From: Escherichia phage vB_EcoM_LNA2 | Direction: 5' to 3' (one strand) | Sequence record: MZ311865.1 | DNA length: 64,000 bases | Shown here: positions 452 through 49,853 of the stretch, in pieces | Position numbering within the stretch: position 1 is the first letter of the stretch | How the letters are laid out: each line of letters begins with the position of its first letter | The notes under the pieces: model-generated | Databases searched by the model: none | What the model saw: only the letters and a program-made list of their open reading frames with translations | Told to the model about the DNA's origin: nothing | Position numbers and translations under genes: made by a program

Positions 452-850
452 TTACACTCTATTGCTTGATGCTAACTGAAGTTTGATTTGTTCGATATCA
501 TCAGGGTTATCTACGACCGAAAATCTAATCTCTACTATAACTGTATAGTCATCATATACTGGCGTTACACTTACAGAAAGTTTGTCGATGCGCGGCTCAT
601 AGTTACGGACGGCTGCCTGGATATTACGCTCAATCGTATCAGCTGTAAGCGGTGTCATGTTCTCGAAAAGTTCATCAACCAAATCGCATCCAAATTCAGG
701 GTCGAAGGGGCGTGAGCCTTTTCTAGTTGTCACTATGCCAAGAAGACTATTTTTAATAGAACGAAGTCCTACAGAACGAGCAACGTCCTTGTTCCAATCC
801 ATACGCATTTCTGGGTCGATATCTGAATAAAGTTTATTGATATTAGACAT
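452..850 (-). CDS. 25: baseplate wedge protein gp25
   Basis: 132 aa, same length as T4 gp25 and near-identical to it as I recall; synteny with 26/51. Confidence 0.9.
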   Translation of the reverse strand: MSNINKLYSDIDPEMRMDWNKDVARSVGLRSIKNSLLGIVTTRKGSRPFDPEFGCDLVDELFENMTPLTADTIERNIQAAVRNYEPRIDKLSVSVTPVYDDYTVIVEIRFSVVDNPDDIEQIKLQLASSNRV

Positions 851-1476
851 TATAATAACTCAAAGAATTCTTTGAGGCCTCGTATTGTGTGAACGTGTGA
901 CGCCCCACATTTGGGACATTTAATAGGGGTTGCCAGATAAATTGACGGCGATACCAAAAGATTTTTAATATTGATCATGTCATCTTCTGTTATAAGGCCG
1001 TAAAGGTCGTTTATTTCTGCTTCAGTTAAATCTTCAACAGGGATGGACTCTCCATTGACAAAAACGGCCTCAATACATGAAGCAATCATTAATGCGATAT
1101 TTTTATCGTCAAATAATTTAGGTTGTCGGAACTTAATTTTAATACCACTAAACGAATACCAGGGGTCGGCCTGTTCATCCAATTGGGTGTGCAATAAATT
1201 CATATAGACTTGAAATGAATGCCCACAGGAACAATTCCAGGTGTGTTCTTGATTCACTTCACCTAACGAATGTGCCCACAGATTTACCAACAATAACTCG
1301 GCTTCTTGTTTAGTCAAGTTTTTAGCATTAGAGCAATTAGTGATAATATTGTTCACTGCGGATTCAATAGTACCGGTAGCCCGCGCACCTATGAGTCCTA
1401 AATATTCTTTTAAAGTAAAGGCTCTACAATTCACTTCTTTATCGCCTAAACGTACGGTAAACGTATATTTGTACAT
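850..1476 (-). CDS. 26: baseplate hub protein gp26
   Basis: 208 aa, T4 gp26 length; sits between 25 and 51 as in T4. Confidence 0.8.
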   Translation of the reverse strand: MYKYTFTVRLGDKEVNCRAFTLKEYLGLIGARATGTIESAVNNIITNCSNAKNLTKQEAELLLVNLWAHSLGEVNQEHTWNCSCGHSFQVYMNLLHTQLDEQADPWYSFSGIKIKFRQPKLFDDKNIALMIASCIEAVFVNGESIPVEDLTEAEINDLYGLITEDDMINIKNLLVSPSIYLATPIKCPKCGASHVHTIRGLKEFFELL

Positions 1477-46809: not shown

Positions 46810-47025
46810 TTACAAACTCATTTCTTTAATAAGGCCAATAAGTTTTGCCTTTTTAGAACGAAGCTTTTCTAAACGATGTCCATTTGAACCGCGAACCACT
46901 AAAGAATTGATTTCAACTTCTAAGAAATTTAATTCTTCAACAAGTGCTTTACGGGGAGCATTCATACCAGGTTTAACTTTACCAAAACGAGTAGTTGTGT
47001 TTTGGGTTAATTTCATTTTAGACAT
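46810..47025 (-). CDS. hypothetical protein (52.1 position)
   Basis: 71-aa ORF with the same leader and first codons as motA. Confidence 0.45.
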   Translation of the reverse strand: MSKMKLTQNTTTRFGKVKPGMNAPRKALVEELNFLEVEINSLVVRGSNGHRLEKLRSKKAKLIGLIKEMSL

Positions 47026-47064: not shown

Positions 47065-47093
47065 ATAATATCATGTTTGAAGCACATGTAAAC
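47065..47093 (-). promoter_or_regulatory. early-type promoter cassette (copy B of duplicated element)
   Basis: Minus-strand GTTTAC-17nt-TATTAT, duplicate of the motA promoter. Confidence 0.5.
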
Positions 47094-47118
47094 TGTTTTG
47101 TGAGAAAAATGCACAAAA

Positions 47119-47134
47119 GGGAGCCGAAGCTCCC
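47119..47134 (-). terminator. UUCG-tetraloop hairpin after gene 52
   Basis: GGGAGC-cgaa-GCTCCC on plus strand. Confidence 0.55.
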
Positions 47135-47210
47135 TAATCATGTTTGTCCAACCAATACAGCCAAATCACTAGTGCAGCTATTGCACCGAGAAATCCTAAG
47201 GCTAGGGCAC

Positions 47211-48536
47211 TCAAAGTGCCTCCAAGTCTTTAGTGTACTCTGTCACAACATCGGTAGACTTCCAATACTCATTTTCTTCTTTCTTAGCTTTAGCTTCTTC
47301 GGCTAGTTTACGTGCTTCATCGGAAGTGATATGGAAGATGTTAAGACCTACCAGTTTATCGACATGTTCTTTATACATTTCTATTTGTGCTAGCTCTTCA
47401 GTCAAAGCTTTACGAGTCTTGCCCTGAATCACAATTTCACCGTTGATAACTTTTTTGATGAAGTGTGCCTTAGCAAAAGCCAGTTTAAATGCTTTTTCAG
47501 ATTCAAGGATTTTGTTGTCAATACGTTTCTGAACGTAAGTCTTACGGACTTCAACAAAATCTTTGATTAAGTCCACTACGTTATCGTAGACAGCTAATTT
47601 ACCCTTTTCATTAATCACTGTGATGTTTTGTGAACGACGTTCGATGAGACTAAAATCTTTCATGATTTTTTCATGACGTAGCTCTTCATCATCAGGAAGC
47701 GAGTACTCTTTACGGAACTTCACCTTAAACCCAAAGCCGTGTTCACCACAATCATCTTCCCATGAGATTAGACCTTTGTCTTCCAACGGGTCAAGAACCT
47801 TACTCACATACGTTTCACGGTCGAATTTATATGGGATTTCAGTTATCTGCATTTGAGTGCGAGATGTGAACTTATACGTTCCGTGAATCTCATAACGCCC
47901 ATCAACTTCATGTACTTCACCACGGAATTCCGGGAATTCAACTTTTGGCTTAGTGACATTTTTACCTTGAAGAGCTTGTAATACAGCCTTTTTTACCGAT
48001 TTAAAACTATGAGGCAGAATATTTGTTGCGTAACCGGTTGCAATACCAGAGACGCCATTCAAAAGAACTGTCGGAATAATAGGAAGATAGAATTTTGGTG
48101 GAATGTGTTCTTTATCTTCATGAGCTGGAGCATATTCAGTATCTTTATATACGTTATAGAAATTTTTACTTACACGAGCAAAAATATAACGAGATGCTGC
48201 AGCTTTTTGGACTGTTCTAGAACCAAAGTTGCCTTGGCCATCTAACAGTGGATAGTTGTTGTTCCATGTGTTAGCCATCAATGCACCTGCATCTTGTGCA
48301 GAAGATTCACCATGGTGATAACCTAAATCTGCAACACCGCCTGCAATTGACGCAAGTTTATGAAATTTTTCTTTATTACCACGAGCCAAATCTAACGCAC
48401 GATGGACCACAAAACGTTGAACCGGCTTAAATCCATCAATCATGTTTGGGATTGCACGGTTTTCAACGGTGTACATCGCATATGCTAAGGCTTCGTTATC
48501 AATAATACTTTTTAGATTACGAGAATTCAATTGCAT
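47211..48536 (-). CDS. 52: DNA topoisomerase II medium subunit gp52
   Basis: 441 aa (T4 gp52 442 aa); type II topoisomerase A-subunit-like. Confidence 0.9.
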   Translation of the reverse strand: MQLNSRNLKSIIDNEALAYAMYTVENRAIPNMIDGFKPVQRFVVHRALDLARGNKEKFHKLASIAGGVADLGYHHGESSAQDAGALMANTWNNNYPLLDGQGNFGSRTVQKAAASRYIFARVSKNFYNVYKDTEYAPAHEDKEHIPPKFYLPIIPTVLLNGVSGIATGYATNILPHSFKSVKKAVLQALQGKNVTKPKVEFPEFRGEVHEVDGRYEIHGTYKFTSRTQMQITEIPYKFDRETYVSKVLDPLEDKGLISWEDDCGEHGFGFKVKFRKEYSLPDDEELRHEKIMKDFSLIERRSQNITVINEKGKLAVYDNVVDLIKDFVEVRKTYVQKRIDNKILESEKAFKLAFAKAHFIKKVINGEIVIQGKTRKALTEELAQIEMYKEHVDKLVGLNIFHITSDEARKLAEEAKAKKEENEYWKSTDVVTEYTKDLEAL

Positions 48537-48540
48537 ATTT

Positions 48541-48681
48541 TCACCATATTAATGAACGAATATCCATTATAACATCTGAAATGAAAAGCACTACTTGGAT
48601 TAGTCCAAACATCACACCGTAGTACAGAACCGTAAGCAACAACAAGAGCCCGAAGGCTCCTGCTAAAATTTTCTTAATCAT
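48541..48681 (-). CDS. small hydrophobic membrane peptide, 46 aa (missed by ORF track; T4 ac position)
   Basis: Hand translation: MIKKILAGAFGLLLLLTVLYYGVMFGLIQVVLFISDVIMDIRSLIW; TAATG overlap with the upstream peptide ORF. Confidence 0.45.
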   Translation of the reverse strand: MIKKILAGAFGLLLLLTVLYYGVMFGLIQVVLFISDVIMDIRSLIW

Positions 48682-48827
48682 TACTCGCCTTTTAACACGT
48701 TAAGAAGAGCTAAGACCGCTAAGGTACCTTGTGATACGGCCTGTTGAAATACTGTTGTTTCGCCTGTAACTAAAGTGCTAACGAATAAAAATGTCCAACA
48801 CAGCAATGCAATAATCCATGCTATCAT
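48681..48827 (-). CDS. small hydrophobic membrane peptide, 48 aa (missed by ORF track)
   Basis: Hand translation: MIAWIIALLCWTFYSFSTLVTGETTVFQQAVSQGTLAVLALLNVLKGE; RBS GAGGT upstream. Confidence 0.45.
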   Translation of the reverse strand: MIAWIIALLCWTFLFVSTLVTGETTVFQQAVSQGTLAVLALLNVLKGE

Positions 48828-48879
48828 TTTAATTACCTCAAAAATAAATTAAAGGCCCAACTTAATAGGCCTGTATAAA

Positions 48880-49326
48880 TTAGTAACTCTGCAGAATGAA
48901 TTTGAAATTATCTGCCAGAAGACGGTTCATTTCAGTGAGTGTTTGATATTCTGATGTATGGTTGCGAGTGAATGCCAGAGCCAATTGACCTTTACCATAA
49001 CCAGTGGTCAGTGGTTTCATGTTCTTAGCTGCAACAAAGATTACATCATATTCAATATTGTTAGTGCCCATGGTACGGGCTAGTTGTGAACGGCCTTGAC
49101 GAATGTGAGAAAGAATTGCATCCAACCCTTGTTTAGAACGTTGACGTCCTACAAAGAATCGTGCTGCTACTTGTCGCCAATCAGATGAACCTTTAACGAA
49201 GAAGTAAAAACCTTCACGAGAACGAAACTCTTTAGAAACTTCAGAACCGTATTCGCCATTACGAACTACTGCAACAACTTCACCGCCAACTGCCAGAAGG
49301 TCTTTACGAGTTAAATATTTGGACAT
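48880..49326 (-). CDS. ndd: nucleoid disruption protein Ndd
   Basis: 148 aa (T4 Ndd 151 aa); conserved ...RFFVG.QRSKQG..A.LSHIRQ.RSQLART... and [22 protein letters not shown] blocks. Confidence 0.85.
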
Positions 49327-49370
49327 GCTAATTTCCTCAATTGATTAATGTTTTTGTAATCCATGAGAGC

Positions 49371-49400
49371 ATTATACTCTGCTCTCAAGAGTTTGTACAA
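49371..49400 (-). promoter_or_regulatory. early-type promoter cassette for ndd with hairpin around -10
   Basis: Minus-strand TTGTAC-18nt-TATAAT; stem GAGAGC/GCTCTC encloses the -10. Confidence 0.5.
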
Positions 49401-49661: not shown

Positions 49662-49853
49662 AATTAAATTACATTAAAATATGTTAAAGCCAACCATGTT
49701 CCAGTGAACGAACATGCAATGTAAAAACCCGTATCACAAATTGTTCTTAGTACAATAAGAAGTGCAATTTTCATAAGTACCTCAACACAATTGAAAATAT
49801 TATACAAATCATTGGGATACTAAGCAACCATATTCCTATCCACATTTTAGAGC

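Follow-up and report, generated by a model that had tools for sequence, protein, structure and literature searches.

Two small hydrophobic reading frames between ndd and gene 52 of Escherichia phage vB_EcoM_LNA2 and their likely orthology to T4 ac and 52.1

INTRODUCTION

The genes ac and 52.1 have been on the map of phage T4 for decades, and ac is used for counter-selection when T4 is engineered. A further small gene of the same region, stp, encodes a 26-aa activator of the host anticodon nuclease PrrC. In the T4 record, these genes are arranged in the order 52, 52.1 (46 aa), ac (51 aa), stp (26 aa), and ndd.

T4 can dispense with ac, whose wild-type form renders the infection sensitive to acriflavine (bioRxiv 10.1101/2025.06.30.662393), while knock-outs, deletions, and the substitution G38R lead to acriflavine resistance (bioRxiv 10.1101/2025.06.30.662393). 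Plasmid expression of T4 Ac on its own makes E. coli more sensitive to acriflavine, by about 3 logs, and likewise to ampicillin (bioRxiv 10.1101/2025.06.30.662393). The early studies of Silver (1964/1967) and Hessler (1963), as cited in the same preprint (bioRxiv 10.1101/2025.06.30.662393), are reported there to describe an early, energy-dependent change of the envelope leading to more dye uptake. The preprint itself proposes that Ac blocks or distorts AcrAB-TolC and thereby prevents export of the dye, a hypothesis built on phenotypes and a predicted structure (bioRxiv 10.1101/2025.06.30.662393), and interference with AcrAB-TolC has been repeated as an assumption elsewhere (PMC13250531). In T4, ac and 52.1 are assigned to the early transcripts, and neither protein was detected by mass spectrometry (PMC9697503 Table S2), as expected for hydrophobic peptides of 5 kDa. 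T4 remains viable when the stretch from gp52.1 to rIIB is deleted (PMC9712115); our search of the literature on gp52.1 returned no functional account, its full-text mention being that of a deletion end-point only.

RESULTS

Two overlapping frames fill the interval between ndd and gene 52

The window analyzed here is a stretch of 64,000 nucleotides from Escherichia phage vB_EcoM_LNA2 (MZ311865.1). A query of 601 nt around the two small open reading frames (ORFs) matched 172 phage records, of which 151, mostly Mosigvirus, spanned at least 80% of the query. The best match was Escherichia phage p000y (99.5%), and the other close matches, namely, APCEc01, mar005P1, the O157 typing phages, and the RB69 group, all belonged to the Mosigvirus list. 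Judged by its sequence, the window is that of a Mosigvirus, an RB69-like T-even coliphage. The gene order in this part of the window is denB, phrog_2390, phrog_18561, an ndd.1-like gene, ndd, ORF A, ORF B, 52, a 71-aa ORF, and motA; in RB69, the corresponding order is ndd, ac, 52.1, 52.

The genes from ndd to 52 lie on the minus strand. The flanks of the interval were identified by their Pfam matches as ndd (48880..49326; Phage_T4_Ndd, 4.3e-89) and gene 52, encoding the gp52 topoisomerase subunit (47211..48536; DNA_topoisoIV, 4.2e-78; phrog_551), in agreement with the position given in a preliminary description of the locus. The gap of 343 nt between them is filled by ORF A (48681..48827), which runs from ATG to TAA and encodes the 48 aa MIAWIIALLCWTFLFVSTLVTGETTVFQQAVSQGTLAVLALLNVLKGE, and by ORF B (48541..48681), which runs from ATG to TGA and encodes the 46 aa MIKKILAGAFGLLLLLTVLYYGVMFGLIQVVLFISDVIMDIRSLIW. 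Both frames were checked on the minus strand of 48000..49400 and against a program-made ORF list, and the two sources agreed exactly with the earlier reading of consecutive frames of 48 and 46 aa joined by TAATG: base 48681 belongs to both the TAA of ORF A and the ATG of ORF B (TAATG, 48679..48683). When the gap was shuffled (n = 20,000), 11% of the shuffled sequences contained one ATG-initiated ORF of 45 aa or more and 0.055% contained two consecutive ones.

Shine-Dalgarno motifs were found ahead of all three genes. A GAGG read from the sequence at 48836..48839 (minus strand) lies 8 nt 5' of the ac ATG, and T4 likewise has GAGG at the equivalent place 5' of ac. The Shine-Dalgarno-like AGGCGAG at 48684..48690 (minus strand) is situated inside the 3' end of ac, placing AGG and GAG 6 and 2 nt, respectively, 5' of the ORF B ATG. 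For gene 52, the motif is GGTGA at 48541..48545 (minus strand), which shares bases with the stop codon of 52.1 and precedes the ATG at 48536 by 4 nt. The TAATG stop/start overlap suggests translational coupling of ac and 52.1, and 52.1 in turn appears to be coupled to the translation of gene 52, given the gap of 4 nt.

ORF A resembles T4 Ac in sequence and position

ORF A matched phrog_2501 at 1.8e-21 over 48 of the 50 profile positions, and T4 Ac matched the same family at 2.2e-25. Direct comparison of ORF A with T4 Ac by BLASTP gave 37% identity over 35 aa (E 8e-8), and phmmer searches in both directions gave 1.3e-6 to 2.8e-6. The product of ORF A is 94% identical to RB69 Ac (NP_861957), whose gene, RB69p267, lies at the syntenic position and is annotated as "ac ... 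similar to T4 AAD42488"; the ac label is also carried by APCEc01, again in synteny, and by many other records. ORF A lies on the same strand as its neighbors, 3' of ndd and directly 5' of 52.1, which it overlaps and which is followed by 52. Since ORF A had no match in Pfam and a scan of ORF A, ORF B, and T4 Ac against NCBIfam gave no meaningful match, Ac being without a curated model in either database, the assignment to the Ac family rests on PHROG membership, pairwise similarity, and synteny.

Ac orthologues are 46 to 51 aa long and have the invariant pattern W..x..T..x..V..Q..x..QG. The predicted second helix of ORF A bears the conserved motif V-x-x-Q-A-x-x-Q-G, in which Q33-G34 of the window align with Q37-G38 of T4, a pair invariant in 9 sequences from 5 genera. 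The alignment of G34 with T4 G38 within this invariant QG supports a conserved function of Ac. T4 Ac (NP_049877, 51 aa) and the 48-aa window Ac thus have in common PHROG 2501, the position 5' of 52.1/52, an N-terminal hydrophobic helix followed by a hinge and a second helix, and the W...T...V..Q...QG pattern, including the glycine at which G38R arises. They differ at the hinge (TGET in the window versus IDAS in T4) and at the C terminus (KGE versus SND), the latter because the overlap between ac and 52.1 is 1 nt (TAATG) in the window and 8 nt (ATGATTAA) in T4. ORF A is, by similarity and by position, an orthologue of T4 Ac, and the preliminary description had looked to the right place in pointing to the ac region of T4 for comparison.

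ORF B resembles T4 gp52.1

ORF B and T4 gp52.1 (NP_049876) are both 46 aa long and are 72% identical over all 46 residues (E 5e-18), with the MIKKIL start, the LYYGVMFGLIQVVLFISDVIM core, and the terminal W in common. ORF B matched Pfam PF24129 (DUF7396) over positions 1 to 46 of 46, with an E value of 4.5e-23 and a score of 81.6 bits for a cutoff of 27, as well as phrog_3595 (6.1e-24), a family that T4 gp52.1 matches too, and the RB69 gene, RB69p266, is annotated as gp52.1. Among the orthologues compared, gp52.1 always has 46 aa counted from the conserved MIKK, with MIKK, YYG, VLFISD, and S.IW followed by the stop codon being invariant. The stop of ORF B at 48541 is separated from the gene 52 ATG at 48536 by 4 nt, and the same spacing is found in T4 (4210 versus 4205) and in RB69. 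On this alignment and gene order, ORF B is to be read as the orthologue of T4 gp52.1 and not as a counterpart of Stp.

Both frames are conserved across genera

We compared the ndd-52 interval of T4, RB69, APCEc01, and p000y and of six phages representing four other genera, Jiaodavirus and Gaprivervirus with two phages each and Winklervirus and Marfavirus with one each. Orthologues of Ac were found in Tequatro-, Mosig-, Gapriver-, Jiaoda-, and Winklervirus and orthologues of gp52.1 in Tequatro-, Mosig-, Gapriver-, Jiaoda-, and Marfavirus, the reading frames thus being intact across five genera, where a lack of frame conservation in related phages would have spoken against them. Selection was read from inter-genus pairs only, because p000y, APCEc01, and RB69 have too few substitutions. 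In Nei-Gojobori comparisons with the window, pS was 0.57 to 0.84 and pN was 0.24 to 0.45 for Ac, and pS was 0.67 to 0.78 and pN was 0.19 to 0.30 for gp52.1 in 5 of the 6 pairs. The exception was the Marfavirus gp52.1 pair, which showed no synonymous excess (pS 0.35 versus pN 0.32). Synonymous sites of the two genes are near saturation between genera, with non-synonymous change at 0.19 to 0.45. The fact that pS lies well above pN in most inter-genus pairs indicates purifying selection on both frames.

By tblastn against phages, gp52.1 was detected in at least 918 records and Ac in at least 292, both counts being lower bounds since the sensitivity of the search is limited for short hydrophobic queries and differs between the two.

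Predicted membrane character

With GRAVY values of 1.27 (ORF A) and 1.70 (ORF B) and helical models for both, the products fit the earlier description of two small hydrophobic membrane proteins. Single-sequence AlphaFold2 modeling, which for short hydrophobic peptides such as these is valid as a statement about secondary structure only, gave for ORF A a helix at residues 2 to 20, a TGET hinge, and a helix at residues 25 to 47 (mean pLDDT 81), and for ORF B one continuous helix at residues 2 to 45 (pLDDT 96). The first helix of Ac is a clear transmembrane segment (Kyte-Doolittle 2.4 over 19 residues), and the second has a conserved polar Q/S/G face. The model agrees with the published ESMFold model of T4 Ac, which likewise has two helices, with a hinge at D26-A27 (bioRxiv 10.1101/2025.06.30.662393). 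The view that each product is essentially one transmembrane helix therefore applies to gp52.1 and oversimplifies Ac, with its two helices and hinge. For gp52.1, the positive-inside rule (N-terminal KK; C-terminal D36/D40/R42) suggests an N-in topology. From its model, gp52.1 is predicted to be a single-helix membrane protein, and it is very widely conserved among Tevenvirinae.

Comparison with Stp and AcrZ

The preliminary description had named ac and stp as the T4 genes at this position and had considered Stp as a possible analogue. Both genes are indeed present in T4, but 52.1, the third gene of the T4 record, had been missed, and the idea of an Stp analogue did not survive the searches. T4 stp lies in the ndd-52 interval, whereas that of the window is without stp, and T4 Stp is hydrophilic and basic and not a membrane peptide, unlike the products of ORF A and ORF B. 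In phmmer searches with T4 Stp, no similarity was found in ORF A or ORF B, nor anything in the ndd-52 gap, and tblastn over the whole 64-kb window gave no stp, the best match being a chance one (E 0.07) that lay in-frame inside a 390-aa structural gene; Stp was thus rejected as an analogue. The same T4 query detected the orthologues of the Gaprivervirus phages SP18 and DCP80 by phmmer and tblastn (E about 1e-12), and since these were readily found, an stp gene in the window would have been detected. We conclude that stp is simply absent from this lineage.

E. coli AcrZ is a 49-aa partner of AcrB with a single transmembrane segment. As a small helical inner-membrane protein, it is similar in size to Ac and of the same kind, a likeness that does not imply a family relationship. 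BLASTP against AcrZ gave no alignment at E <= 100, and AcrZ was therefore rejected as a homologue and is kept as an analogy only.

Possible transcription signals around the pair

A T4-early-like promoter sequence, TGTACA-17-TATAAT, was found at 49399..49371, and ac and 52.1 probably ride on read-through early transcripts that start 5' of ndd. Our sigma-70 promoter scan returned 10 matches, compared to 9.1 in shuffled sequences; because the scan shows no excess over the shuffle expectation, we do not claim a promoter within the ORF pair.

In the 52-nt spacer between ndd and ac, a scan for terminator-like structures pointed to a weak hairpin (AGGCCTA..TGGGCCT) with a T-rich run behind it (48853..48872, minus strand). 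Some related GenBank records label this stretch as a terminator. The hairpin folds at -11.1 kcal/mol, no better than shuffled sequences (z -0.96), and the claim of a functional terminator was dropped on this ground; perhaps it acts as a leaky intrinsic terminator or stabilizes the RNA.

Small frames and cassette exchange around the interval

Further small frames were seen on both sides of the pair. A 26-aa ORF with a TTG start, LSALALGFLGAIAALVIWLYWLDKHD, lies at 47134..47214 on the minus strand and consists of a single hydrophobic helix. The ORF shares bases with the stop of gene 52 at its start (TTGA) and is preceded by GGAGG at a distance of 4 nt. Direct alignment of the four genomes showed it to be identical in p000y, APCEc01, and RB69, apart from one synonymous change in RB69 (CTA to TTA), and it is annotated in none of these three. 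It had no PHROG match and no similarity to T4 motA.1 (49 aa, phrog_3487), which occupies the same position. This frame is a better candidate for a truly unannotated small membrane peptide than ORF A or ORF B. Directly 3' of it, at 47118..47135 (minus strand), a hairpin (AGGGAGC-TTCG-GCTCCCT) followed by a T-run is likely the terminator of the gene 52 transcription unit; in the RB69 version, the stem is kept and the loop is inverted (CCGAAG). After the hairpin, at about 47065..47092 (minus strand), the sequence GTTTACA...TGCTTCAAACATGATATTATA looks like a MotA-box middle promoter of the T4 kind, placed ahead of motA and the 71-aa ORF that precedes it (46810..47025; phrog_6200).

On the other side of ndd, the frame between ndd.1 and an 87-aa ORF is another small hydrophobic one (49664..49774, minus strand; MKIALLIVLRTICDTGFYIACSFTGTWLALTYFNVI, 36 aa from its ATG; phrog_18561), in a part of the map where T4 has the tiny membrane-protein genes ndd.2 to ndd.6. 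APCEc01 and p000y list this frame as hypothetical, and RB69 leaves it unannotated.

In Jiaoda-, Winkler-, Marfa-, and Gaprivervirus, the ndd-52 interval is a hot spot of small hydrophobic cassettes. Three of these genera, Jiaoda-, Winkler-, and Marfavirus, have an additional ORF of 57 to 61 aa (M..F.MGYLF..ALMIC.GT...) after ndd. A peptide of about 45 to 52 aa that we refer to by its "GVWVP" sequence takes the place of Ac in SP18 and Marfavirus, and in Winklervirus it follows Ac, in the place of 52.1 before gene 52. Among the genera compared, stp occurs only in T4 and Gaprivervirus. The SP18 orthologues of stp (651..731 of the interval) and 52.1 (901..1041) are both unannotated, as are ac and 52.1 in the record of Escherichia phage DCP80. 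In DCP80, positions 562..1076 of the interval form a tandem arrangement with a period of about 260 bp, in which duplicates of the stp 3' end plus ribosome-binding site (82 nt, 84% identical) and of the 52.1 5' end (48 nt, 98% identical) enclose first a "GVWVP" cassette and then an ac cassette. This looks like the footprint of recombination between two cassette variants via their conserved flanks.

Annotation of the locus

The two frames had been taken as unannotated, which holds in part: RB69, APCEc01, and many other records annotate ac, but some close records, including p000y, omit 52.1. In p000y, ORF A is annotated as hypothetical and ORF B is omitted. Judged by their feature lists, roughly 14 of the 30 top records are without one of the two small genes, and where this could be checked (mar005P1, mogra, and JK45), the missing gene was 52.1. 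In some Tequatrovirus records, the only label under the 52.1 match is "acridine resistance". The product name "acridine resistance protein" is itself misleading, the wild-type gene conferring sensitivity.

DISCUSSION

We are highly confident that ORF A and ORF B are the Mosigvirus (RB69-type) orthologues of the T4 early genes ac and 52.1, set in an ndd-ac-52.1-52 string and apparently coupled. The orthology, the synteny, the purifying selection, the hydrophobic helices, and the ribosome-binding motifs all come from the present comparison. Both ORFs belong to known gene families that were already named in RB69, the nearest reference genome, and the finding is in this respect an ordinary one.

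The function of the pair is taken over from T4. By extension from T4, Ac would be a non-essential 5-kDa inner-membrane protein made early, in whose presence the infected cell would accumulate acridines, the wild-type allele conferring sensitivity and its loss resistance. The rise in intracellular acridine would, by analogy with T4, come about through a change in permeability or through a block of AcrAB-TolC efflux. For RB69-type Ac, the acridine phenotype is extrapolated from a T4 protein to which it is 37% identical over 35 residues.

That same divergence, the lack of Pfam and NCBIfam matches for the 48-aa frame, and the swapping of small hydrophobic cassettes in the ndd-52 interval of other genera could be taken to mean that the window carries new, lineage-specific small membrane effectors that only happen to sit where T4 has ac and stp, and the preliminary description had left the choice between functional analogues and different effectors. 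We consider new effectors very unlikely, as both ORFs fall into the PHROG families of the T4 proteins, the 46-aa frame retains 72% identity to gp52.1, the motifs are kept down to the functionally tested glycine, neither product is similar to Stp, and the RB69 annotation already equates the two with T4 ac and 52.1; identity, family membership, and synteny make them orthologues. Still further from the data is the notion that one or both frames are non-coding and arose by chance in an AT-rich spacer. The ORFs are very short, the T4 proteins went unseen by mass spectrometry, and a single frame of this length is common enough in shuffled gaps, but two consecutive ones are rare, the frames are kept open in five genera and pS clearly exceeds pN in most comparisons, Shine-Dalgarno motifs are present, and T4 ac has a genetic phenotype to which point mutants contribute. 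Chance frames are thus extremely unlikely.

A different question is whether orthologues of Ac and gp52.1 act together, as a co-translated two-subunit membrane module in which gp52.1 is a needed partner in the acridine response or in another envelope role. The stop/start overlap of ac and 52.1 in the window, T4, Jiaodavirus K65PH164, and Gaprivervirus DCP80 speaks for such a module, as do the small helical membrane character of both products and the early class of both T4 transcripts; in Jiaodavirus Metamorpho, the genes overlap only with the annotated TTG start, the first ATG lying 8 nt past the ac stop. However, T4 ac sensitises E. coli from a plasmid without 52.1, records with gp52.1 outnumber those with Ac about threefold (918 versus 292 by tblastn, with the sensitivity differing between the two), and each gene occurs without the other, gp52.1 standing beside non-Ac cassettes in SP18 and Marfavirus and Winklervirus having Ac without a recognisable 52.1, which shows that the two assort independently. 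An obligatory module is therefore improbable. Conserved at 46 aa in more than 900 T-even-type records, gp52.1 lies next to the topoisomerase gene in every case. It is doubtful, though conceivable, that gp52.1 partners a variable neighbor, Ac or a "GVWVP" peptide, and that the ndd-52 interval supplies exchangeable inner-membrane effectors tuning envelope transport or efflux early in infection; in that case, the target of RB69-type Ac would be a host pump, AcrB being one example. Should the efflux-pump hypothesis for Ac be true, Ac and AcrZ would both act on AcrB.

Taking the two frames as orthologues of T4 ac and 52.1, the locus represents a recurrent and fixable annotation error. The divergent RB69-type Ac, with its conserved QG motif, would be a useful natural variant for testing the hypothesis of interference with AcrAB-TolC, and the presence of ac in this phage suggests that the counter-selection applied in T4 could also work in Mosigvirus phages.
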